A stretch of 64,000 nucleotides of DNA from Candidatus Moraniibacteriota bacterium. GTDB lineage: Bacteria; Patescibacteriota; Minisyncoccia; Moranbacterales; UBA1568. The stretch is taken from contig CAVURJ010000001.1 in the NCBI GenBank assembly GCA_963743885.1, positions 76,949-140,948 of the forward strand. Reading direction: 5' to 3'. How positions within the stretch are numbered: position 1 is the first letter of the stretch; each line of letters begins with the position of its first letter. The notes beneath the pieces were generated by a model, which made no database searches, had not been told where the DNA came from, and saw only the letters and a program-made list of their open reading frames with translations. Below, one piece after another: positions 1-62,665 of the stretch. The position numbers and the translations under genes were made by a program.

Positions 1-1147
1 CGTTACTGGCGGTGAGAGAAGCATTGGTACCGCCGTGAGCGAGAGAGAGATAATTGGTATCGACGCTCCAGGTGCCAGAGGAAATGGTCGGGACGCCGGT
101 CGAAGCGCTCGTATTGAGGCCGGTACCGCCGTACTGGGCACCGATGGCGGTACCTTGCCAAATGCCGGCGGAAATAGTGCCGGCAGATGTGATACCCGCA
201 AAGGTGGCTGCGCCAGCAGACGTGATACCCCAATTATCATCCGTGATGGAGACGCCGGTCGAAGCAACGTTGCCGATGGTAATCGTATCCGCACCACCAT
301 TGCCGATGGTGATCGTGTCTGTACCAGTTGAACCAAGGGTCACGGTCGTAGCGGACGTAGCAGTGAGCGATGTACCGGTGACGGAAACCGAATCATTCAA
401 GCTGATAACGCCAACACCGGCAGCGGTAAGCGTCAAATCTTCGCCAGTCGCCGTAGTCATGTCTGTCGTAGCGCCCGAAAAGACCAGACCGGTCGAGCCG
501 ATGGTCTTGTTGGTGAGCGTCTGCGCCGTCGCGAGGTCGGCGATCGTGATGGTACCGGACGGAAGTGTCGCCGTCGTCGAGGCAGTCGCAGTGAGCGTCA
601 TCGGGAAGGCGCCGGATGTCGAGAAGGCATCCGCGAAGGACACGGTCTTACCGTTTGCGACGGTGAGAGTACCGGTCGTGTCGGTCACCGTGAGGCCATG
701 GACCTTGTCCGCGTTCATGGCGTACGGAGCGGCCGTAAAGCGCACGAGCGGGGTCATCTGGCCGTTCGCGTTGAAGTTGATGCCAAGGTAGATGTTGTCG
801 GTGTTGAAATCAACCGAGCCAGGCAGCGTCGTGGTGTCGCCGAGATCAGTCTGGAAAATACCGTCCGTGACCGTGATGCTCTTGGATTCGCGCCACACGG
901 CATCGTTGTTCGCACCGCTCGTACAAGCCGTGGCCGGACTGCCGGTCGTGTAGAGACAAAACAGGAATGTGTAGCTGCCGTTCGTGACGTTGGTCCCGTC
1001 GGTATTGGTCACCTTACCCTGGAAGTTGATCTGGCGATTGATGCCAGCAGCAGCCTGTACAGAGGCAGAAAAAAGCCAAAAGCCCCCCATCCCGAGGATG
1101 GTGGCTACGAGCAGCACGCTGATGATATTTTTGTTTTTCCCCTCCAT
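1..1147 (-). CDS. Large secreted Thr/Gly/Ser/Asn-rich repetitive cell-surface protein, N-terminal ~380 aa (C-terminus lies beyond the window start)
   Basis: Manual reverse translation from ATG at 1147..1145 gives MEGKNKNIISVLLVATILGMGGFWLFSASVQAAAGINRQINFQGKV..., a signal peptide or TM helix, then a long stop-free T/G/S/N-rich sequence with short repeats (GSTGTDTITIGNGGADTITIGN, IGAQYGGTG). It is absent from the ORF track because there is no stop inside the window. Plus-strand ORFs 54..791 and 698..1213 are its antisense. Confidence 0.6.
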   Translation of the reverse strand, partial: MEGKNKNIISVLLVATILGMGGFWLFSASVQAAAGINRQINFQGKVTNTDGTNVTNGSYTFLFCLYTTGSPATACTSGANNDAVWRESKSITVTDGIFQTDLGDTTTLPGSVDFNTDNIYLGINFNANGQMTPLVRFTAAPYAMNADKVHGLTVTDTTGTLTVANGKTVSFADAFSTSGAFPMTLTATASTTATLPSGTITIADLATAQTLTNKTIGSTGLVFSGATTDMTTATGEDLTLTAAGVGVISLNDSVSVTGTSLTATSATTVTLGSTGTDTITIGNGGADTITIGNVASTGVSITDDNWGITSAGAATFAGITSAGTISAGIWQGTAIGAQYGGTGLNTSASTGVPTISSGTWSVDTNYLSLAHGGTNASLTASN

Positions 1148-1236
1148 AACCCCTTTAAAGAAGCAAAAACGGGAGAAGGTCTATCTTTTTCTTTCTTCGC
1201 CCGTTTCCATTGAACTCACTATCTATTATACACGAA

Positions 1237-1265
1237 AAAAATGGCTTAGTCAAGCCATAAACAGT
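1237..1265 (-). terminator. Hairpin (tggctt/aagcca) plus T-run on the minus strand
   Basis: aatggcttagtcaagccat flanked by A7 on plus (T-run on minus). It is the second of two tandem terminators downstream of the 1394..2011 gene. Confidence 0.35.
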
Positions 1266-1347
1266 TTGACGTATATAGAGAGTCATTTCATGCATTTCAC
1301 GAAAGATAGAAAGTCGGCCACTATTTTCCGCGTTGTCAAGAAAACAA

Positions 1348-1375
1348 AAAATGGCTTTTTTAAGCCATTATAGTA
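1348..1375 (-). terminator. Rho-independent terminator-like hairpin for the 1394..2011 gene
   Basis: aaaaaatggcttttttaagccatta; the minus-strand reading gives a hairpin followed by a T-run immediately after the stop at 1394. Confidence 0.4.
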
Positions 1376-1393
1376 AAAAACAGAAAAGTCCGG

Positions 1394-2011
1394 TCACTTT
1401 TTGAAGGAAAAACTACCGAGAATATCCTGGAAGTCTTTTTCGATACGATCCGGATCAGCAAAAGATTGCGAACTAACGCTTACTGTAGCCAAAATACCGC
1501 TTCCCAGGATAAAAGCTGTCTTCTCATACCCCTCTTCTTTCTTCGTAAAGACGACTCCCTCGGATCCATCAGCTATTTTCCCTTTTTCTCGGCCATATTG
1601 TGCCTTCTTGACATCATTCCGGAGGCGATAAGCCGGGATATCATCAAGTGTCTTGCCATGCATATCCATGATAGCGAAGGCAAACGTCCTTGACGACATT
1701 CCCGATGCGACAAAAACACCCTTTTCAAGCGACACCGTATCCGGATCGGTCTCACGCGGCGTATATCCGCCAGGATACGAGAAAATGGCGTATTGCCCAT
1801 CAAATCGGACTGGGGAAAGCAATGCCTCCGTCTCGGCCTGCGTCGGTCCCTGCTCGATGGTCCGGACTACGCCGACGGCTGGGCGATTGAAAAGCCAAAC
1901 AAGCAACGCAATCGCGATGACAACAAGCGCTACAAACACGATAAGCAAGGTCTTTTTCCAGCTTTTCTTTGACTTTTCCTCTGGATTCTTCTCTGATACA
2001 GATTCAGTCAT
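1394..2011 (-). CDS. Hypothetical N-terminally membrane-anchored protein
   Basis: 205-aa ORF. A Lys/Glu-rich N-terminus is followed by one TM helix (LLIVFVALVVIAIALLVWLF) and a roughly 160-aa soluble domain. It is co-oriented with the surface-protein locus. Confidence 0.45.
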   Translation of the reverse strand: MTESVSEKNPEEKSKKSWKKTLLIVFVALVVIAIALLVWLFNRPAVGVVRTIEQGPTQAETEALLSPVRFDGQYAIFSYPGGYTPRETDPDTVSLEKGVFVASGMSSRTFAFAIMDMHGKTLDDIPAYRLRNDVKKAQYGREKGKIADGSEGVVFTKKEEGYEKTAFILGSGILATVSVSSQSFADPDRIEKDFQDILGSFSFKK

Positions 2012-2086
2012 ATCGTCACAATCTTTTTCTCTTTGTTTTTTCTTATTTCTTGTCTCTTGTCCCTTTTATCTCTTATCACTCATCCC

Positions 2087-3022
2087 TTATCCTCTTGCTC
2101 GGCGCTTCCGCCTCACTACTCTATCAGCCGCAAAGACTGCTATCAGGCCGATACATCCAGCGATGAAGGCTGGCGGTACGACAAATACCCGCTCTTCTAC
2201 GGTTTCAAAGGCTTCCAGGCCATCGTAGCGGTACCCGAGACGGAGCGTATACACGCCAGGAACCCAAGCAGTCATCACTGGCCGCATCTTGACAACTATA
2301 TCACGTGTCGCTCCAGGCAATACGATGGAAGAATCCTCATTCACGATACCTTTTGCTACCAGACGACCTCGAGGATCAAGCAGATCCGACCGACCGCGCG
2401 GCACGATATGCACGTTGCCCATATTGCGGAAAGCGAGCCGCATCGAACGCACCGAGCCAAAAATATCCCGATCCATCGAAGATGAAACGAATTCCATGCC
2501 ATAGCGCTCACCGCCCATTTTTTTCATGAAAACAAGGGCTGAGATGCGCTGTTCAAGAGCAATATTGGCCGGTCCACTCCGAAGCACATCAGGATTGCCC
2601 GCATCAAAGAGAATAGACCCGTAATGTCCGCCTGGTGCCAGATCAGGCGTATTCACCAATCGGCCACGAAGCTCAGCCGTACCACCAGCCGGCACGGTCA
2701 CGCTATCGCTCTCAAGCGCTATCCAGGACGCCCGATCATACGACTGCTCAATATCACGTGCGGCACCAAGGAAAGCTGTACCAGCGGAAATATCCAGCGA
2801 TCCAAAATCCACCGCGAATGCAGAAAAATGCACATCAGACGGCGAATCGTTCGAAAGCGTGATTGTAAAAGGCTTTTCCGTCTCGCCCGGCTCGAAAACG
2901 AGATCGCTCAAGAAAGGCTCAACAGAAACACCTATTCCCGCTGCTTGCGCGGGAATAGCAAAGATACAAGAGACGAGAGACAAGAAACAAACGGCGGAAA
3001 AGACAACAAGGAGAGCGCGCAT
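2087..3022 (-). CDS. Secreted cell-surface protein with signal peptide and C-terminal TM anchor plus basic tail; divergent paralog of the two downstream genes (DUF916/DUF3324-like architecture by topology)
   Basis: The ORF track extends the ORF to 3328, but the plausible start is ATG at 3022 (MRALLVVFSAVCFLSLVSCIFAIPAQA signal peptide). C-terminus ...PPAFIAGCIGLIAVFAADRVVRRKRRARG. Shares FRNMGNVHIVPRG (vs VRNSGNVHVAPRG) and GHYGSILF (vs GYYYAVVF) with 3208..4251 and 4268..5305. Confidence 0.55.
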   Translation of the reverse strand: MRALLVVFSAVCFLSLVSCIFAIPAQAAGIGVSVEPFLSDLVFEPGETEKPFTITLSNDSPSDVHFSAFAVDFGSLDISAGTAFLGAARDIEQSYDRASWIALESDSVTVPAGGTAELRGRLVNTPDLAPGGHYGSILFDAGNPDVLRSGPANIALEQRISALVFMKKMGGERYGMEFVSSSMDRDIFGSVRSMRLAFRNMGNVHIVPRGRSDLLDPRGRLVAKGIVNEDSSIVLPGATRDIVVKMRPVMTAWVPGVYTLRLGYRYDGLEAFETVEERVFVVPPAFIAGCIGLIAVFAADRVVRRKRRARG

Positions 3023-3207
3023 AAGAAATCGTAACAATATGTCGACTACAAAACGAATCTTTGCGTTTTTTCTGTCATTCCGAGCTTGTCGAGGAATCCC
3101 GTGCCAAAAAGGAAGAGGTAAGATTCTTCGCGAAGCCCCCCCGCCTTTGGCGGGCTCAGAATGACAACGACTTGTTTTGTGATCGCTATAACTACGACTC
3201 CAGTATA

Positions 3208-4251
3208 TCAGGCTTTGCCGAAAGTACGTATCTTGCGATAGAAGCCAAGGAAGGTATTCTTGAAACCGATGAAGGCGAAGAAAAGAATCACTGCTGACGC
3301 CCCAATCACCCTCCAAGGCATCACCCAAAATGATACCTCCGCCTCAAGCGGGACATCACGAGTACCATCGTCGTAGGCCATGACCAGCTTGGCCGTATAC
3401 TTGCCGAAACGGAGTTTGTGAGCCTGCGAGAAATCCCATTGGAGTTCAGAAATCGGCTGTCCATCCTCATCAAAGACGGTGCGATCGCCATCACGCTTTT
3501 CAATACGAAGCGGGAATCCATCCTCCCATTTAACCGAGTAGATACGGTTGGAATCAGGAAGAATATTCCCCATCCCCTCATTAACGTCCAAAAGAGCAAC
3601 TTGTTTGTCTGTAGTAGAACTAATAAAAATATTGCCCCTCGGAGCCACATGGACATTGCCAGAATTTCTCACCTTAACATTGAATGTTGTCGGGAGAAAT
3701 TCATACCATGAACGATCGGTGGAAAACTCCGCAATCTGCGCCTCTCTTCTTGCATCCGGAGTCCTCACATCAAGCAAAACAAGAACTGCCGAACCGCCAG
3801 TAATAGCCGTCTGTCGTACTCCTGTTTTGACCTCTTCATCAGCCCTGGAAAATACGACTGCGTAGTAATAGCCAAATGAAGCGCTCTTGGGCGGATTGAG
3901 CGTCGTGGTAATCGTTTTCCATTCCTGTGGATCGATATTGAAAGCATCCTCCGAGAAAGAAATCCACTTGATGAAATCATCGCTCGGCTCCGGATCCATG
4001 AGCTGCGGCTGGCCGTTTTCCTGGTATGCCTTAAACTTCATCAGGCTCGCCTTGATCCTTTCCGACTGACTGCCGCCATTCTTAATCTTGATTTGAGCAG
4101 ATACTGGTGCTCCTGGCTCGGTAACGAGGCTGATTGGAAGCGGGGACGTGACAAGATTCAAGCTACCATCAGATTGAGCAGAAGCAACCGGAATAGCAAT
4201 CAAAAAACAGAGTACAATAAACAGTGAGCCAGAGAAGAGATGTTTGGTCAT
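3208..4251 (-). CDS. Secreted surface protein with C-terminal TM anchor, tandem duplicate copy 1
   Basis: The ORF track start at 4359 reads through the upstream copy's C-terminal codons. The real start is ATG at 4251 (MTKHLFSGSLFIVLCFLIAIPVASA). Roughly 320 aa are identical to 4268..5305 except one residue (DVPLEAEV vs DVQLEAEV). The C-terminal TM/basic tail is unique (SAVILFFAFIGFKNTFLGFYRKIRTFGKA). Confidence 0.55.
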   Translation of the reverse strand: MTKHLFSGSLFIVLCFLIAIPVASAQSDGSLNLVTSPLPISLVTEPGAPVSAQIKIKNGGSQSERIKASLMKFKAYQENGQPQLMDPEPSDDFIKWISFSEDAFNIDPQEWKTITTTLNPPKSASFGYYYAVVFSRADEEVKTGVRQTAITGGSAVLVLLDVRTPDARREAQIAEFSTDRSWYEFLPTTFNVKVRNSGNVHVAPRGNIFISSTTDKQVALLDVNEGMGNILPDSNRIYSVKWEDGFPLRIEKRDGDRTVFDEDGQPISELQWDFSQAHKLRFGKYTAKLVMAYDDGTRDVPLEAEVSFWVMPWRVIGASAVILFFAFIGFKNTFLGFYRKIRTFGKA

Positions 4252-4267
4252 ATGAGAAGCCATAGGG

Positions 4268-5305
4268 CTATTGCTGGAGCGCCTTAAGCCGGCGTCGCAG
4301 GCGGATGACGTACATGGTGAGACCGACAATAAGCGCGAAGTTAAGAAGCGCGGCTCCAATCACTCTCCAAGGCATCACCCAAAATGATACCTCCGCCTCA
4401 AGCTGGACATCACGAGTACCATCGTCGTAGGCCATGACCAGCTTGGCCGTATACTTGCCGAAACGGAGTTTGTGAGCCTGCGAGAAATCCCATTGGAGTT
4501 CAGAAATCGGCTGTCCATCCTCATCAAAGACGGTGCGATCGCCATCACGCTTTTCAATACGAAGCGGGAATCCATCCTCCCATTTAACCGAGTAGATACG
4601 GTTGGAATCAGGAAGAATATTCCCCATCCCCTCATTAACGTCCAAAAGAGCAACTTGTTTGTCTGTAGTAGAACTAATAAAAATATTGCCCCTCGGAGCC
4701 ACATGGACATTGCCAGAATTTCTCACCTTAACATTGAATGTTGTCGGGAGAAATTCATACCATGAACGATCGGTGGAAAACTCCGCAATCTGCGCCTCTC
4801 TTCTTGCATCCGGAGTCCTCACATCAAGCAAAACAAGAACTGCCGAACCGCCAGTAATAGCCGTCTGTCGTACTCCTGTTTTGACCTCTTCATCAGCCCT
4901 GGAAAATACGACTGCGTAGTAATAGCCAAATGAAGCGCTCTTGGGCGGATTGAGCGTCGTGGTAATCGTTTTCCATTCCTGTGGATCGATATTGAAAGCA
5001 TCCTCCGAGAAAGAAATCCACTTGATGAAATCATCGCTCGGCTCCGGATCCATGAGCTGCGGCTGGCCGTTTTCCTGGTATGCCTTAAACTTCATCAGGC
5101 TCGCCTTGATCCTTTCCGACTGACTGCCGCCATTCTTAATCTTGATTTGAGCAGATACTGGTGCTCCTGGCTCGGTAACGAGGCTGATTGGAAGCGGGGA
5201 CGTGACAAGATTCAAGCTACCATCAGATTGAGCAGAAGCAACCGGAATAGCAATCAAAAAACAGAGTACAATAAACAGTGAGCCAGAGAAGAGATGTTTG
5301 GTCAT
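4268..5305 (-). CDS. Secreted surface protein with C-terminal TM anchor, tandem duplicate copy 2
   Basis: 345 aa with signal peptide MTKHLFSGSLFIVLCFLIAIPVASAQS and C-terminal ...VIGAALLNFALIVGLTMYVIRLRRRLKALQQ. Its stop lies 16 bp from the start of copy 1. Confidence 0.6.
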   Translation of the reverse strand: MTKHLFSGSLFIVLCFLIAIPVASAQSDGSLNLVTSPLPISLVTEPGAPVSAQIKIKNGGSQSERIKASLMKFKAYQENGQPQLMDPEPSDDFIKWISFSEDAFNIDPQEWKTITTTLNPPKSASFGYYYAVVFSRADEEVKTGVRQTAITGGSAVLVLLDVRTPDARREAQIAEFSTDRSWYEFLPTTFNVKVRNSGNVHVAPRGNIFISSTTDKQVALLDVNEGMGNILPDSNRIYSVKWEDGFPLRIEKRDGDRTVFDEDGQPISELQWDFSQAHKLRFGKYTAKLVMAYDDGTRDVQLEAEVSFWVMPWRVIGAALLNFALIVGLTMYVIRLRRRLKALQQ

Positions 5306-5418
5306 ATATCTATCATCACTTATCTTTTATCCCTCATCTACTATCTAGGATTTCCCCAAGTATACCCCTTTTTCAGCCAAAACAAAACCCCCTCCTTTCG
5401 GAGGGGGTTAAAAATTCT

Positions 5419-6498
5419 CTAGAATCGACCCGCAGCCACAATAGTGAGTGTATCGGTATAATCCGAAGCTGCTGCCTGCACTGCCGAAATCTTCGCGCGC
5501 TCGATAAGGGTCAAGACATCTCCGCTCGCCACGCCATCACAAGAAGCAATCGGTTGGAAAGAAGTTGAAAGGGTTCCGCCTGAAGTTGTATTTGCACCAA
5601 GGTATTCCGGATCAATAACAAGGTTCGAACTTCCAGAACATGTCTCCGTTGTTTCATCAACATCCAAGACGTAACCGGTTAATGAGGCCAAATCTGAAGG
5701 AGCTCCATTTACCGTTCCAGCTGTAGCAATAGAGGCTGAGGCAACGGTCGAATTCAAAGCCGCATTAGCGCTCTTAACCCAAGCTATCCATCCATCCTGA
5801 GCATTAGTAGCAACAGTTAATGTATTTCCGTATGTTGAAGTCGTCGTCGTAGAAAGATTTCCCGTAAACGAATCCGTATTCGCATCGGCATCGGCATCGG
5901 CTCCATCACCAAATACGACACTGAATGTCGGTGGAACGGTTGCGGAAATTACCAGTTGATCATTAGCTATGACGGACAGCGCGTAGCTGGAAGAATCTAT
6001 TGTGGCCGCCCCGCTTGTTCGCGTGGTAATAGTTCCGACCTGATCATTTCCAAGCGCGCCAGTAGTCAATGTTGATGTTCCAGTGAAGTGAAAGCAGTAC
6101 ATGGTTCCAACAACAAGATCCCCGGAAGGGAATGTGACCGTCTTACCCGAAACCGAGTCCGCATCAGTTACGCCAGATGTCATACCAATCCAAAACGTTG
6201 ATCCTGTCGGAAGATTAGTATCATCCACTACCCAGTTCGTTGCGGTGCTATTCACTGTAAAATCAGTTCCTGCTACCGTTGGGAAAGTGACCTGAACATC
6301 ACTCTCGGTATTGGCAGTCGCTGGCCGGGCACACACCGTACCACCGGTTGTTGTAACATCACTTATACGATCAAGCCGAACATACGCTTGCTGGAAGTTC
6401 GCCGCTTCAACCTTATTTACGAGAATCGGGAGAACAATGACTAAAAGAAGTACAATCGCCTCAAGCACGGCCGTCCTCCGGATAAACATTCGCTTCAT
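5419..6498 (-). CDS. Secreted Thr/Ser/Gly-rich surface protein, paralog of 6684..7766 (WxL-like role inferred from locus context only)
   Basis: 359 aa with signal peptide MKRMFIRRTAVLEAIVLLLVIVLPILVNKVEA. C-terminal motif DYTDTLTIVAAGRF matches DYVETLTVIASGSF of the neighbouring gene. Contains a G/D/A low-complexity stretch (GDGADADADANTD). Confidence 0.5.
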   Translation of the reverse strand: MKRMFIRRTAVLEAIVLLLVIVLPILVNKVEAANFQQAYVRLDRISDVTTTGGTVCARPATANTESDVQVTFPTVAGTDFTVNSTATNWVVDDTNLPTGSTFWIGMTSGVTDADSVSGKTVTFPSGDLVVGTMYCFHFTGTSTLTTGALGNDQVGTITTRTSGAATIDSSSYALSVIANDQLVISATVPPTFSVVFGDGADADADANTDSFTGNLSTTTTSTYGNTLTVATNAQDGWIAWVKSANAALNSTVASASIATAGTVNGAPSDLASLTGYVLDVDETTETCSGSSNLVIDPEYLGANTTSGGTLSTSFQPIASCDGVASGDVLTLIERAKISAVQAAASDYTDTLTIVAAGRF

Positions 6499-6683
6499 AC
6501 TTTTCGATTAATGTTCGTTTTGTTCGAAAACACGAGAGTTTTCACTCGCTCACTTACCATTATACACGAAAAATGCTCGCTCGTCAAAGATTTCATCTAT
6601 ACGGACCGATACAGACTCTACGCTGACTCGCACGGACGGGTGCAAATCATACACCGATTCATACTGACCTCATGAAAACATCA

Positions 6684-7766
6684 TCAGAAACTTCCCGAAG
6701 CGATGACGGTGAGCGTCTCGACATAATCGCCAGCAGCAGGAGTAGTGTTCGCAGACTTGGCCTTGAGGACGAACGAGCCGCGGCCGGCTGTGATCGGTGC
6801 AGAAGTCGAGAAGATTTCGCGGATAGTCGTATTCGTCACGCCGACCGTATCAGAGCTGCCATTATACGGTGCGACGAGTGCGAGTGGGCCGCCTGACCCC
6901 TGGGCTACCGAGGCTCCTTGAGCACCAAAACCGCTCTGGGCAGCGGAAAGATCGGCCGTTGCCGAAGAGATAGTATGGCTCGCTGTCGAGCTGTACAGGC
7001 CGCCATTGGCAGAGCTCACATAGACCTTGCCGCCGGTCGTGCCATTGGTATCAAGATCAATCCAGACACGATTTCCGCTCGTTACAACCGACCCGGCTGG
7101 CAAGCTTCCGAGGTCGATATCCCGTATCTCATTTTCATCCGATGACGATGTTCCTATATCAATATCAAATGAAAGCTGCGGGTTCGATGTCGCGACAGCG
7201 GCTGTCGGTCCGTAGCCGGTCTCGGTAAACTTGCCCTGCCAGGCCTTCACTTTGACCGTATAGGTCGTTCCGGCCGCAAGACCGATGATGTCCATACCGC
7301 TCGCTCCGCCCCAGGCGGCATATGTCTGGTAGTCTTCGAGACCAAGCGTCGCGCCTATGGTCGCATCGCTCTGCACATAGCGCGTATCGGCTACGAAACC
7401 GTCCGTACTGATCGCGATAGCGAAGAGCGTATCGGTCGGATTGCCACCAGTCGCAAGGACGATGTGGAGCTTGTTGTAATAGTTCGAGGGATTGGTGAAG
7501 GTCGGAGCAGGCGGTACATCGGCCTGATTAGTATATTGGAGGCCTGTTCCAGCCTTATAGGCAGCGCTCGAGAGGAGCCCCTGGCTCTGCTCACCAGCAA
7601 GCGTCTCTGCGGCATAGTCAGTCGACGTCGCGTTGCTCGTCCCACCACTCCCGAAGCTGTAATTCTGGAGCTGATAGCTCGTAGACGCAGGCATCACGAG
7701 CATGATAAAAAGTCCCGATGGGATAGGAAGGATGCGCCGCAAAAGATGACGAAAATACTGCTGCAT
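6684..7766 (-). CDS. Secreted Thr/Ser/Gly-rich surface protein, paralog of 5419..6498
   Basis: 360 aa with N-terminal hydrophobic signal and a conserved C-terminal D-Y-x-E-T-L-T-V-I-A-S-G-S-F. Confidence 0.5.
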   Translation of the reverse strand: MQQYFRHLLRRILPIPSGLFIMLVMPASTSYQLQNYSFGSGGTSNATSTDYAAETLAGEQSQGLLSSAAYKAGTGLQYTNQADVPPAPTFTNPSNYYNKLHIVLATGGNPTDTLFAIAISTDGFVADTRYVQSDATIGATLGLEDYQTYAAWGGASGMDIIGLAAGTTYTVKVKAWQGKFTETGYGPTAAVATSNPQLSFDIDIGTSSSDENEIRDIDLGSLPAGSVVTSGNRVWIDLDTNGTTGGKVYVSSANGGLYSSTASHTISSATADLSAAQSGFGAQGASVAQGSGGPLALVAPYNGSSDTVGVTNTTIREIFSTSAPITAGRGSFVLKAKSANTTPAAGDYVETLTVIASGSF

Positions 7767-7775
7767 AAGCTGACG

Positions 7776-8216
7776 CTATGATACCAAATCTGACGGCTCA
7801 GCGCACGCGTCTCGGAAAGAATGCTTGAAAAAAAGCGCGACGGCTCCAATCGTCAGGAAGACATCGGCGAGATTGAACACTGGGAAGTGCGGCAAGAAGA
7901 CATAATCCGTCACGCAACCATAAGCGAAGCGCTCATAGAAGTTGCTCGCTCCCGCCGCGATGAGCATGAGCCACGGCCATGCCTCAGAAAAATCCGCCGC
8001 CGTCCGAAAACCGTAAAAGAAAAGGAGAAAAGCGGCGAGCGCGAGTACAAAAAGTATCATTGGAGAGAACGGCATACCGAACGCTCCCCAAGCATTGCAA
8101 GAAAAATACCCTTCATCATTCCAAACAGTCACGGCTAGACGAACGATTTGGCAAAAGACAAACAAAAAAGCCGCAAAAAGGATTCCTAGCATCGCTTTCT
8201 GCGGCTTCATATACAT
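7776..8216 (-). CDS. lspA: Lipoprotein signal peptidase (signal peptidase II)
   Basis: 146 aa, 4 TM segments, with the conserved LspA motif FNLADVFLTIGAV and NFYERF. Confidence 0.7.
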   Translation of the reverse strand: MYMKPQKAMLGILFAAFLFVFCQIVRLAVTVWNDEGYFSCNAWGAFGMPFSPMILFVLALAAFLLFFYGFRTAADFSEAWPWLMLIAAGASNFYERFAYGCVTDYVFLPHFPVFNLADVFLTIGAVALFFKHSFRDACAEPSDLVS

Positions 8217-59811: not shown

Positions 59812-61260
59812 ATGGCTCGTACTGCTGATATTTTCCCTCACCTTATGCTGACAAGCGATGAACTTTGGAAGGCTGTCTTGGGCCAAATAGAACTTTCTTT
59901 ATCGAAAGCCAATTTTATAACCTGGTTTAAGAACACTCGGATCCTTAGTAGCCAAAACGGCCTCGTCACTATTGGCGTGCCGAATGGCTTCGCAAAAGAA
60001 TGGCTTGAAAACAAGTACAACCTCTATATATTGAAGGCGCTCAAAAGCCTCGACCCAAGCGTCACTGAGATGCGTTGTGTTATATCGCAGGAACGGCCGA
60101 ATATCCCAACAATTGATTCGGTCAAGACCGCGTCCGTGTCGTCACAACCATCAGAGGCCCAAGGATTCGTCAGGAAAAAGATCATCGAAAAGCCCGCTTT
60201 CGGCGCGCAAACCACATCCGAACCAGTATTCCATGAGACAAACCTCAACAGCCGATACACATTTGAAAACTTCATCGTTGCTGAGAACAACGAACTCGCA
60301 CGAGCGGCCTGCTACGCCGTCTCACAAAACCTCGGCATGGCCTATAACCCACTCTTCATCTATGGTGGTGTAGGGCTTGGCAAAACCCACCTCCTCCAAT
60401 CCATCGGCAATGAGGTGATGAGAAACGCGCCTGAAAAGCGCATCAAATACATCAACTCTGAACGATTCACCACTGAACTCGTCGATTCCATCAAGAACCA
60501 GAAGATTGATAAATTCAAAGAATACTACCAACAGATGGACCTCCTCATTATTGATGATGTCCAATTTCTCGCCGGCAGAGAGAAAACTCAGAATGAGTTC
60601 TTCCATATCTTCAATGCGCTCTACCAACTCAATAAACAGATCGTGATATCGAGCGACCGGCCCCCAAAAGCCATTCCAACACTCGAGGAGCGTCTTCGGT
60701 CGCGTTTTGAGGGAGGTATGATCACTGATATTAGTCGGCCAAATATTGAAACGCGTATCGCTATACTTGAGGCTAAGATAAGCGAAAAATCAGCTCATCT
60801 TGATGATGCATCCATTCGTTACATCGCTGAGCACATCTCACAAAACATCCGTGAACTTGAAGGAGCCCTCAACCGAGTCATCGCCTTCTGTGAATTCCAC
60901 AAAGTCTCTCCCTCCCTCGAAAATACCCAGAAAGTCCTCTCTCAACTCATTGAAACGAATAAAAAAACCATCAAGCTGGATGATATCTTCTCAGCCATTA
61001 TTGAGTTTTATAACGTATCAAAAGAAGACCTCTTAAAGAAAGGCCGGAAAAAAGAAGTCTCCCACCCTCGACAGGTGATGATGTATCTCCTCCGAAAGGA
61101 ACTCGACATGCCATTTTCTACGATTGGCGATACCCTTGGGGGACGTGATCATACCACTGCCCTTCATGCATATGAGAAAGTGAATAAACAACAAGTGGAT
61201 AATGAGCGACTCCAAGAAGAACTCCTTACCTTAAAAGAGAAGCTCTACTACCAATCCTGA
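59812..61260 (+). CDS. dnaA: Chromosomal replication initiator DnaA
   Basis: 482 aa; Walker A GGVGLGKTHLLQ, AAA+ sensor motifs, and C-terminal DNA-binding helix DHTTALHAYEKV. Confidence 0.95.
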   Translation: MARTADIFPHLMLTSDELWKAVLGQIELSLSKANFITWFKNTRILSSQNGLVTIGVPNGFAKEWLENKYNLYILKALKSLDPSVTEMRCVISQERPNIPTIDSVKTASVSSQPSEAQGFVRKKIIEKPAFGAQTTSEPVFHETNLNSRYTFENFIVAENNELARAACYAVSQNLGMAYNPLFIYGGVGLGKTHLLQSIGNEVMRNAPEKRIKYINSERFTTELVDSIKNQKIDKFKEYYQQMDLLIIDDVQFLAGREKTQNEFFHIFNALYQLNKQIVISSDRPPKAIPTLEERLRSRFEGGMITDISRPNIETRIAILEAKISEKSAHLDDASIRYIAEHISQNIRELEGALNRVIAFCEFHKVSPSLENTQKVLSQLIETNKKTIKLDDIFSAIIEFYNVSKEDLLKKGRKKEVSHPRQVMMYLLRKELDMPFSTIGDTLGGRDHTTALHAYEKVNKQQVDNERLQEELLTLKEKLYYQS

Positions 61261-61519
61261 TACAAACTCTGTTAATAACCCTGTATAACCAACGATATCC
61301 GCTGGATAAGAGTGTTGATAAACTAAACACTCTTGTGAGTAACTCTCCTCTCCTTGATTATTTTATGAGTTATACGAATATCCCTCTGAGATATCCTGAT
61401 TATAAAAATACATCTACTCTAAAAAATACCCTTTATTTAAAACAAAAATAAGAATTATCCCCATATCCACATCACTAAGTAATAATAATTCTTATTTAAA
61501 TATATAATACTTATATCTT
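61261..61519. promoter_or_regulatory. oriC: Candidate oriC: AT-rich dnaA-dnaN spacer with DnaA boxes and a DNA-unwinding-element-like AT tract
   Basis: ttatccagc (reverse complement of gctggataa, 61301 region), atatccacat and ttatcccca (about 61455..61475), then about 60 bp of more than 85% AT (aataataattcttatttaaatatataatacttatatctt) adjacent to dnaN. Confidence 0.45.
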
Positions 61520-62665
61520 ATGAAACTCATCTGTACACAAGAGAACCTCAACCGAGCAATATCATACCTTGAACGAGTTACAGGAAAACAGACAAACCTT
61601 CCTATTCTTGGAAATTTCCTTCTTGAGACAGAAAAGGGGAGATTGAAGATATCAGCGACAAATCTCGAGATTGGGGTTGTGGTGTATATTGGGGCAAAGA
61701 TCGAGCGTGAAGGAAGAATAGCAGTTCCTTCGCGGGTATTGGCAAATTTTATCCATAATCTTCCAAGTGGGGATGTAGTGGATATTGAGGTTTCTGGGCA
61801 GGTGATGAAAATAGTGAGTGCAGCGCATCAAGTGAATATTAAAGGTGTGGATGGAAAGGATTTTCCGATTATCCCACAATATAAAGAGGAGTATCCATTT
61901 GCGTTACCAGCCCAAGAATTAAAAGAAGCGCTTTCAAGGCTTTTATTTTGTGTTAGCTTAAATGAATCTCGGCTTGAGCTTACTGGGGTGAATATTTTTT
62001 TCTTTGAAGATGCTCTCCACCTCGCAGCGACAGATAGTTTTAGGCTTGCAGAGGAGATTATTCCACTTAAAGAGTCGAGCGTTGGATATCAGGATTTTAT
62101 TAAGGGGAATCCATCGCTTATTATTCCAAGTAATACCCTCCAAGAGGTGGTAAGGGTTATTACTCAGGAAAATAGCGAGGTGAAGATGGCACTTAAGGAG
62201 AATCAGGTATTTTTTGAAATAGATGGGGTCCAGATTATCTCGCGGAGTATTAATGGGAAATACCCTGATTATAAGCAGATTATCCCACAATCCTTTATAT
62301 TAAGATGTACTTTAGGGAGGGATGATCTTCAACGGGCGATCCGGATTGCAAGCGCATTCTCATCGTATGATACAAATGAGGTGACGCTTGTATTTGATCC
62401 GAAGCGTAGTGAGTGTTCCGTGGCGTCTATTTCGCGCGAAGTCGGGGAGAATAAGACGGTGCTTAAGTGTGAGTTTATATCTGGGAATGACCCATTAACG
62501 ATCGTCTTTAATCCGCGCTATGTCGCAGATGGCTTGAATGCCTGCTCGAGTGGTGTGGTGATGTTTTTAGCGAATACAGGGACGACGCCAGCAGCGCTTC
62601 GGATGATGGATAATGAGAGGGAAAAAGAAGGGTATCTTTATATTATGATGCCGATCAGGAAATGA
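61520..62665 (+). CDS. dnaN: DNA polymerase III beta sliding clamp
   Basis: 381 aa, three-domain clamp; typical position after dnaA. Confidence 0.9.
   Translation: MKLICTQENLNRAISYLERVTGKQTNLPILGNFLLETEKGRLKISATNLEIGVVVYIGAKIEREGRIAVPSRVLANFIHNLPSGDVVDIEVSGQVMKIVSAAHQVNIKGVDGKDFPIIPQYKEEYPFALPAQELKEALSRLLFCVSLNESRLELTGVNIFFFEDALHLAATDSFRLAEEIIPLKESSVGYQDFIKGNPSLIIPSNTLQEVVRVITQENSEVKMALKENQVFFEIDGVQIISRSINGKYPDYKQIIPQSFILRCTLGRDDLQRAIRIASAFSSYDTNEVTLVFDPKRSECSVASISREVGENKTVLKCEFISGNDPLTIVFNPRYVADGLNACSSGVVMFLANTGTTPAALRMMDNEREKEGYLYIMMPIRK

Follow-up and report, generated by a model that had tools for sequence, protein, structure and literature searches.

A widely conserved operon of ultra-small bacteria, with membrane anchors related to WxLIP, is a probable assembly system for an usher-less surface filament

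What kind of surface structure is made by seven consecutive genes that encode nothing but exported proteins, in a bacterium of the candidate phyla radiation (CPR)? The question is raised by positions 1-7766 of a 64,000-nucleotide stretch of a Candidatus Moraniibacteriota genome (assembly GCA_963743885.1, contig CAVURJ010000001.1, positions 76,949 to 140,948 of the forward strand), the whole of which we call the window. CPR bacteria represent a large share of bacterial diversity and lead a host-attached life, and their attachment organelles are only now coming to light. An initial annotation of the window had described a co-oriented, minus-strand cell-surface locus here, had likened it to the cell-surface-complex (csc) or WxL clusters of Gram-positive bacteria and had suggested that it was a previously unrecognised variant of them. 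The locus itself is real: seven consecutive minus-strand genes, named g1 to g7 in order of position, have exported products, though g2, which is anchored by an N-terminal signal-anchor helix and has no cleaved signal peptide, does not fit the original statement that all are signal-peptide proteins. We report here that this operon probably builds an usher-less, chaperone-assisted donor-strand surface filament, on the same principle as the Pam pili of CPR bacteria and the chaperone-usher pili.

The csc/WxL clusters of Firmicutes, said to have been described by Siezen in 2006, have been connected with the adhesion and virulence of enterococci and of Listeria. Their WxLIP proteins consist of two immunoglobulin-like (Ig-like) domains and a transmembrane helix, and in AlphaFold2 (AF2) predictions the beta-sandwich of the WxL protein takes its missing strand from WxLIP (Hassan et al. 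2023, PMC10599100); our literature search found no paper that links CPR bacteria to WxL. Electron cryo-microscopy (cryo-EM) of two filaments of the CPR bacterium Candidatus Mycosynbacter amalyticus has revealed two-domain pilins joined by a donated linker strand, and the corresponding pam operon encodes the PapD/FimC-like chaperones PamC and PamD with a C-terminal transmembrane helix, a single-domain tip protein PamT and an RbmA-like, transmembrane-anchored terminator PamR, with a tail-fibre-like gene nearby; PamA/B were found for the most part in Saccharimonadia and Microgenomatia (Troman et al., bioRxiv 10.64898/2026.03.03.709456). CPR pili with anchored PapD-like chaperones were therefore already on record, and the locus is less novel in this respect than the initial annotation had supposed, but the same preprint makes no mention of WxL, DUF916 or Moranbacteria. 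Three points described below appear to be new: the relation to WxLIP, how widely the operon occurs and its twin-anchor pattern.

What we report of the genes present, their homologies and predicted folds, their synteny and their regulatory signals is observed directly. A scan of species-representative CPR genomes with a g5 profile, taking one genome per species, yielded 79 related loci, in which gene order was established by tblastn of the window proteins. The comparative genomics that had been proposed for the locus thus shows its gene order to be conserved: most of the 79 loci, which come from Moraniibacteriota, Saccharibacteria and Shapirobacteria (one genome), have the order g7, one or two copies of g6, one or two genes of the g5 type, g3, g2 where present, and g1, while the flanks of the operon vary among them. 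The g5 family comprises at least 1769 sequence clusters (50-60% identity; the named homologues are all from Moranbacteria/Moraniibacteriota or Saccharimonadales) and the g6 family at least 1138 (at about 60% identity), with an identical copy of g6 on a 652-kb contig. The two families span Moraniibacteriota, Saccharibacteria and Microgenomatia, which is far broader than reported for the two Pam pilins. The conservation of gene order and, as described below, of a C-terminal motif goes well beyond chance. The locus is a real and widely conserved operon of ultra-small CPR bacteria, and would be a prime candidate for a general host-contact filament of the CPR. In one Moraniibacteriota relative (L002:1496-7582) the operon lies directly downstream of type IV pilus-like genes, which the other loci lack; judged by motifs only, this set has 565-aa and 347-aa genes in the positions of the secretion ATPase and platform protein, and short proteins with prepilin N-termini of the G-F-T-L-I-E type.

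Three of the seven proteins are membrane anchors and they provide the firmest link to a known system. g3 (2087-3022, minus strand, 311 aa) has a signal peptide, two beta domains, a C-terminal transmembrane helix plus the tail RRKRRARG; g4 (3208-4251, minus strand, 347 aa) and g5 (4268-5305, minus strand, 345 aa) are chaperone-like anchored proteins, the latter with a signal peptide, two Ig-like domains, a transmembrane helix at residues 313-344 and a tail of the type ...YVIRLRRRLKALQQ, the former with an ectodomain that equals that of g5 except for P/Q301 and a tail of the type ...FIGFKNTFLGFYRKIRTFGKA. Within the window the motif NxGNVH is confined to these proteins, g3 carrying FRNMGNVHIVPRG and both g4, which the overlap filter of the window scan had removed, and g5 carrying VRNSGNVHVAPRG. 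The three had been described as paralogues with a transmembrane helix and a basic tail, and the architecture and shared motif stand; g3 and g5 are true but distant paralogues (25% identity over 245 aa, with an expectation value (E) of 6e-12), but g4 and g5 are near-identical and are not ordinary paralogues. An exact copy of g3 is present in the homologue set as P0241. The signal peptide of g3 has a lipobox-like L-V-S-C before an A-Q-A site.

The initial annotation had likened the anchors to DUF916/DUF3324 proteins and the secreted partners to WxL proteins, an analogy to be checked with the profiles PF06030, PF11797 and PF13731. Run against the window proteins, these profiles give no match at E<=1. 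For g3 this negative is misleading and scans at the level of the family are needed: PF06030 (DUF916, now WxLIP_PGBD) is matched by 39 of 74 g3 homologues at E<=0.01, and three of the 74 pass its gathering score (28.5, 27.8 and 27.5 against 27.3), while PF11797 (DUF3324) is not among the families matched by these 74 proteins at the same threshold. We also took nine annotated WxL clusters of Firmicutes from plasmids and made an alignment (A3) of the WxLIP proteins that they encode; compared with it in hhalign, the g3 family has a probability of 98.5% and E 2.4e-15 over 228 columns across the DUF916 and DUF3324 parts, and the match remains colinear through the DUF3324 part, reaching column 277 of 358. 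When the signal peptide and transmembrane helix are trimmed, g3 still matches WxLIP at E 3.9e-8 and g5 at 1.9e-5 (5e-8 for the untrimmed g5 family), against 0.3-0.7 for negative controls. The AF2 model of g5, with a predicted local distance difference test (pLDDT) of 85, contains two Ig-like beta-sandwich domains and a C-terminal helix (313-344), and its best Foldseek matches in the PDB are the crystal structures of Enterococcus faecium WxLIP, 9i1y and 9i25 (E 2.5e-9, template-modelling (TM) score 0.47-0.49, about 300 columns aligned with 9i1y), followed by CsuC, CfaA and YadV, which are chaperones of chaperone-usher systems (E 3e-9 to 5e-7), and by RbmA. Two of the 74 g3 homologues also match the fimbrial-chaperone NCBIfam model PRK09918 weakly (E 3.9e-4), while PapD_N and PapD_C of Pfam find no match in the window proteins or the 74 family members, and PDB chains, searched by sequence and by profile with g5, g6, g7, A1 and A2, gave nothing significant, with no sequence match to WxLIP, to CsuC or, in a PDB set that has no Pam entries, to Pam.

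By sequence, the g3 of the window thus belongs to WxLIP as a remote homologue through its family, not through a Pfam threshold on the window sequence itself, and g3, g4 and g5 together are remote WxLIP homologues with a PapD-like fold. The csc/WxL analogy consequently holds for the anchors and fails for the secreted partners, which have no WxL domain, as set out below. In Firmicutes, pairs of WxL and WxLIP genes are common on plasmids of Bacillus and Enterococcus (285 plasmid records match); a pair on B. anthracis pXO1 (78207-79968, L084) lies just downstream of a gene for a CpaF/VirB11-family ATPase, and in many of the Firmicutes clusters (L080-L088) there is also a surface protein of giant size, as well as a small LPXTG protein, and these mirror g1 and g2 in position, not in sequence.

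The secreted proteins g6 (5419-6498, minus strand, 359 aa) and g7 (6684-7766, minus strand, 360 aa), which we regard as the candidate major and tip subunits respectively, have only their last 150 or so amino acids in common (30% identity, E 8e-7). They end in DYTDTLTIVAAGRF (5422-5463, minus strand) and DYVETLTVIASGSF (6687-6728, minus strand), and the shared C-terminal motif D-Y-x-[DE]-T-L-T-x-x-A-x-G-x-F that had been noted for them is confirmed in both proteins and in their orthologues: nearly all of the 80 g6-like and 65 g7-like open reading frames (ORFs) of the 79 loci end in D-Y-x-[DE]-x-[LIW]-T-[VIL]-[VI]-[AG]-[AS]-[GA]-x-[FY]-COOH, and a scan of the window finds this ending in g6 and g7 alone. 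In g6 the segment is invariant among orthologues and forms the last beta strand of the model (E351-357); in g7 it follows the family-wide sequence pattern. The AF2 model of g6 (pLDDT 83.9) has an N-terminal beta-sandwich (residues 33-176, approximately), a linker and a C-terminal beta domain (192-359). The linker (5923-5970, minus strand; residues 177-192, I-A-N-D-Q-L-V-I-S-A-T-V-P-P-T-F) is a candidate donor strand. Among 44 diverse homologues it reads I177...D180-Q-[IV]-V-[VI]-T-A-x-V188-P-P-T-F192, with D180, V188 and F192 invariant and 182-186 nearly so, and yet residues 180-186 have a pLDDT below 50 in the monomer model, as one would expect if this strand paired in trans. The family consensus of g7 shows no equivalent of this linker.

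g7 carries instead a different N-terminal module (7524-7691, minus strand; residues 26-81), which matches the NCBIfam model NF058579, CPR_pilus_PamT, over profile positions 27-82 with E 2.1e-8. The same profile is matched by 22 of 42 members of the g7 family (best E 2.8e-10), always in its N-terminal part, and seven of the 42 match fn3, consistent with an fn3-like middle domain. With 33.9 bits against a cutoff of 240, g7 is, on its sequence, a protein with a PamT N-module and not a PamT equivalog. A search with the module among 1.84 billion representative sequences gave 36 matches, of which those inspected were g7-like or fragments, and none of nine scanned was above the PamT cutoff. One distant relative with this module, P0350 (365 aa), ends in G-Q-Y-T-Q-T-L-T-Y-T-V-Y-G-V-F, and this terminal strand suggests that further acceptor-domain variants exist.

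Can g6 and g7 be WxL proteins, as the analogy would have it? We reject this assignment: none of 86 family members (44 of g6 and 42 of g7) matches Pfam WxL at E<=0.1, PF13731 has no match in the g6 and g7 of the window, and when three alignments of g6/g7 (one of them domain-only, with 143 sequences) are compared in hhalign with 14 WxL proteins, the E values of 0.18, 0.11 and 0.042 are not significant. The best local alignment pairs 'VtTNa..GW.vWVk' with the first WxL motif, 'VTD.RG..GWtLtVk', a lead that is not significant, and a permissive alignment also pairs the C-terminal motifs of the two families in a colinear way ('A.DYtdtLT' against 'A..Y.t.LtW'), again without significance. Two resemblances of the same kind, and likewise not significant, are an invariant G-W-x-x-W-V-K in the g6 family, similar to the first WxL motif, and the ending DYTDTWTIIGAG[TSN]F of several g6-like ORFs of Saccharibacteria (for example L070:8815-9873), which places Trp at the second W-x-L position. 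A C-terminal sorting signal of a known kind (LPXTG, PEP-CTERM, the C-terminal domain of type IX secretion and others) was also considered and rejected: the final element of both g6 and g7 is a beta strand that closes with Phe, neither protein has a transmembrane helix there, sorting-domain models do not match the g6 family at E<=10, and LPxTG is absent from every protein of the operon. The proposal that the C-terminal motif is a docking element is plausible, by analogy with chaperone-usher and Pam pilins, in a revised sense, in which this last strand would border a groove that accepts a donated strand.

The regulatory signals set g6 apart from its neighbours. A sigma-70-like promoter, TTGACG-17-TATAAT, found by a consensus scan and agreeing with the consensus at 11 of 12 positions, lies in the g7-g6 spacer (6559-6587, minus strand), and 10 nt after the g6 stop codon there is a strong intrinsic-terminator-like hairpin (5386-5409, minus strand) with a 10-bp stem, seven G-C pairs and a T-run. 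Across the related loci a promoter match of at least 10/12 within 150 nt upstream is found for 43 of 80 g6-like genes, against 0-4 in each other gene class, and a hairpin with T-run downstream for 60 of 80, against 10-35 per class; the median free energy of the hairpin is -19.3 kcal/mol for g6-like genes and -9 to -15 for other genes. In chaperone-usher pili the genes of the major subunits are generally expressed above the assembly genes. A gene that is, by these predicted signals, separately and strongly expressed within an operon for assembly is well suited to encode a major structural subunit.

From these observations we infer strand insertion, polymerisation, the order of the subunits and the function of the system, as follows. 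Sec would export all seven products, with g6, under its own strong promoter and terminator, as the major subunit. The tethered g5 and g4 would hold fresh g6 and g7 subunits at the membrane with a strand inserted in the groove beside the last strand of the subunit, the candidate strand in g5/g4 being the conserved Q-T-A-x-V-G-G-T-A-x-L-V-L-L-E-A that comes after a loop which is variable and modelled with low confidence. The next g6 would then use its linker to displace the chaperone strand in a donor-strand exchange, and the filament would grow. Because g7 has an acceptor domain and no donor-type linker, it could only sit at the distal tip, presumably as an adhesin, with its PamT-like N-module and fn3-like domain. 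g3, the paralogue closest to WxLIP, would cap the filament and hold its base in the membrane, as has been proposed for PamR and for WxLIP/WxL, with g2 and the long fibre protein g1 as conserved accessories.

The main rival to this filament, which we hold to be unlikely, is a static complex of the csc/WxL type, in which g6 and g7 would dock by beta-strand complementation on g3, g4 and g5 and give a short adhesive layer and no filament. WxLIP is, after all, the sole statistically supported external homology of the anchors as well as their best structural match, the WxL clusters also set WxLIP beside at least two secreted partners, together with one small anchored and one giant surface protein, and the C-terminal domain of g6/g7 resembles the two WxL motifs in a colinear fashion. 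That resemblance, however, falls short of significance (E 0.04-0.18, with 0/86 in Pfam WxL), and a static complex would leave unexplained both an invariant, low-confidence linker that is present in g6 but not in g7 and the separate, strong expression unit of g6; moreover, CPR filaments of this architecture have been seen by cryo-EM in the case of Pam. That g6 is simply an abundant envelope or S-layer-type protein, with the anchors as unrelated adhesins or organisers and no assembly by strand exchange, seems to us highly improbable. g6 is indeed secreted, rich in Thr, Ser and Gly and highly expressed by its regulatory signals, and its Foldseek matches are generic, but this reading does not account for the strict co-conservation of g6, g7 and two to three chaperone-like genes across phylum-level groups, for a shared C-terminal domain with an invariant terminal strand or for anchors with chaperone/WxLIP folds.

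If the operon does build a filament, it might be a simple orthologue of pam, with g7 as PamT, g6 as PamA/B/E, g5/g4 as PamC/D and g3 as PamR, so that only the lineage would be new. The pam order T-A-E-D-R, which we take from consecutive accession numbers, parallels g7-g6-(g6')-g5-g3, the PamT model matches the g7 N-module, and both systems have three transmembrane-anchored two-domain proteins as well as a neighbour resembling a tail fibre. We nonetheless regard strict orthology as quite unlikely: the PamT match, limited to the first 80 or so profile positions, scores 34 bits where the cutoff is 240, the copies of the operon in Saccharibacteria match no Pam model, the pilins are of unequal size (PamA is 55 kDa), and homologues of g6 at 30-60% identity span Moraniibacteriota, Saccharibacteria and Microgenomatia, where the PamB of the preprint lies essentially within Saccharimonadia, although an MMseqs2 search from one member of the g6 family would, we reason, have reached all three groups. 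The filament that we favour has its own points to answer. Since PamA/B are reported chiefly from Saccharimonadia and Microgenomatia, the operon probably represents a sibling system, distinct from pam itself, with PamA-E and PamR compared through their descriptions in the preprint; NCBIfam Pam models other than PamT give no match at E<=10, the orthologues in Saccharibacteria (L070, L048) match no Pam model of NCBIfam at all, and the ATP-synthase neighbours reported for pam were not seen in a simple motif scan of the window, which ends inside g1 and so limits the neighbourhood covered, or, by eye, among the ORFs of four related loci. Strand donation and polymerisation we infer from monomer models and by analogy, and we know of no filaments formed by the WxL clusters, whose anchors are the demonstrable homologues. 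For g6 Foldseek finds only generic two-domain Ig adhesins, with low TM-scores, and the pilin and adhesin folds of CfaB, FimH, CfaE and PapG, and another conserved stretch of g6, Y-V-R-L-D-R at its mature N-terminus, is an alternative candidate for the donor strand.

The twin anchors g4 and g5 are of interest in their own right. Their coding parts for signal peptide and ectodomain form a tandem repeat of 952 nt with a period of 1054 (3302-4253 and 4356-5307), with two mismatches, at 3310 and 3350 in the first copy, while the transmembrane helices and tails of the two proteins are unrelated. Homogenised pairs occur in 17 other Moraniibacteriota species (loci L001, L002, L003, L005-L007, L009, L010, L012, L015, L020, L034, L040, L043, L045, L054 and L057), with 870-990 nt of identical DNA and no mismatch at all in 15 of the 17. 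The twin ectodomains are 100% identical within a genome and 51-84% identical between genomes, whereas the twin tails are 10-45% identical to each other and the tail types are kept across species; in Saccharibacteria the two anchor copies have diverged (56-83%). An assembly artefact was considered as the source of the near-identity and rejected, since the assemblies of 17 other species have the same pattern, with conserved tail types. Comparison of the sequences points to recurrent gene conversion limited to the ectodomain, together with selection that preserves two distinct membrane anchors, and would make this a clean natural case of concerted evolution in one part of a gene pair.

The remaining two genes of the operon lie at its downstream end. 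g1 (1-1147, minus strand) is truncated at the edge of the window, its visible 382 aa translating to a signal peptide and a Gly/Thr-rich, fibre-like protein with a weak match to the NCBIfam model Bdello_MAT_N (chimeric fibre protein, E 1e-3). Its N-terminal part is kept at the same position in most related loci, where complete orthologues are of 554-2601 aa, except for one ORF of 181 aa. A further sigma-70-like promoter from the consensus scan, TTGACT-17-TATAAT (11/12), lies upstream of g1 in the g2-g1 intergenic region (1225-1253, minus strand). g2 (1394-2011, minus strand, 205 aa) has, by its sequence, a Lys-rich N-terminus, a single N-terminal transmembrane helix and an external domain of about 160 aa; Pfam and NCBIfam scans find no family for it, and its homologues in 32 related loci stand either after g3 or before g7. 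Upstream, the run of co-oriented minus-strand genes extends past 7766 by way of lspA, the gene for signal peptidase II (7776-8216, minus strand; Pfam Peptidase_A8, E 3.9e-14), 9 nt upstream of g7; beyond it come genes for a DksA-type zinc-finger protein, for a member of the YraN family and, judged by its translation, for polynucleotide phosphorylase (pnp). lspA also adjoins the operon on a 3-kb Logan contig with an identical g6, and in none of the 79 related loci; it is probably a neighbour and not a part of the surface system. At the other end of the window, two plus-strand ORFs within 59812-62665 (482 and 381 aa) resemble dnaA and dnaN in their N-terminal sequences, so that the window may lie near a replication origin.

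How, then, does the operon relate to the systems already known? A tentative answer, which we put forward as possible but doubtful, is that the WxL/csc clusters, the Pam pili and the present operon are branches of one ancient, usher-less assembly pathway of monoderm bacteria, in which a tethered WxLIP/PapD-like protein donates a strand and so completes the unfinished fold of its secreted partners. Were this true, the CPR partners would have gained an internal donor strand and would polymerise, WxLIP would be the monoderm counterpart of the chaperone of chaperone-usher systems, WxL proteins would be predicted to be held, and perhaps chained, by donor-strand complementation, and the twin chaperones, with ectodomains kept identical by gene conversion and distinct, conserved membrane tails, would give one subunit two points of entry that are wired differently. 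The WxLIP homology of the anchors would in any case tie the poorly understood WxL clusters of Gram-positive bacteria to donor-strand pilus assembly and offer a testable mechanism to both fields.

With the csc/WxL clusters the operon shares anchors built of a signal peptide, two Ig-like domains, a transmembrane helix and a basic tail, the company of at least two secreted partners, a giant surface protein and a small anchored one, a partner C-terminus with a Y-x-x-x-L-T-h-x-h strand motif, and the insertion of a strand of the anchor into its partner, which is predicted for WxLIP and WxL and proposed here. It differs in that its secreted partners lack, by Pfam and profile comparison, a WxL domain and also the Trp-x-Leu pair, in having no LPXTG protein of the CscD type (g2 being anchored by an N-terminal helix), in its two to three anchors per cluster where one is typical, in its occurrence in CPR bacteria and not Bacillota, and in a donor-type linker that suggests polymerisation, a behaviour not on record for WxL proteins. 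The likeness to the chaperone-usher pili (Pap/Fim, archaic Csu and class 5 CFA/I) lies in the g5 model, which matches CsuC, CfaA and YadV nearly as well as WxLIP, and in the weak matches of g6 to the CfaB, FimH, PapG and CfaE folds; here, however, there is no PapD match in Pfam and no usher and no outer membrane, which CPR bacteria are known to lack, and no usher-sized beta-barrel gene is found in the operon or the 79 loci, where every gene is accounted for, while the chaperones are tethered to the membrane, the subunits have two domains and the candidate donor strand is internal instead of an N-terminal extension.

From Pam the operon is distinguished by the lack of any match to the NCBIfam Pam models except the PamT N-module, by a g7 of 360 aa with an extra fn3-like domain against the 241 aa of PamT, by one or two shaft pilins of about 350 aa in place of PamA (55 kDa), PamB and PamE, and by its presence in Moraniibacteriota, with twin chaperones whose ectodomains are homogenised. 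The resemblance is nevertheless extensive. Both are operons of signal-peptide proteins in CPR bacteria, without outer membrane or usher; the predicted model of g6 is compatible with pilins of the Pam type, which have two domains, a conserved strand between them and an acceptor domain at the C-terminus; both have a tip protein, in g7 a candidate one, without a donor strand, the g7 N-module matching the model for PamT; and both combine PapD-like helpers of two Ig-like domains and a C-terminal transmembrane helix with a third transmembrane-anchored two-domain protein and with a tail-fibre-like neighbour, represented here by the conserved, fibre-like g1.

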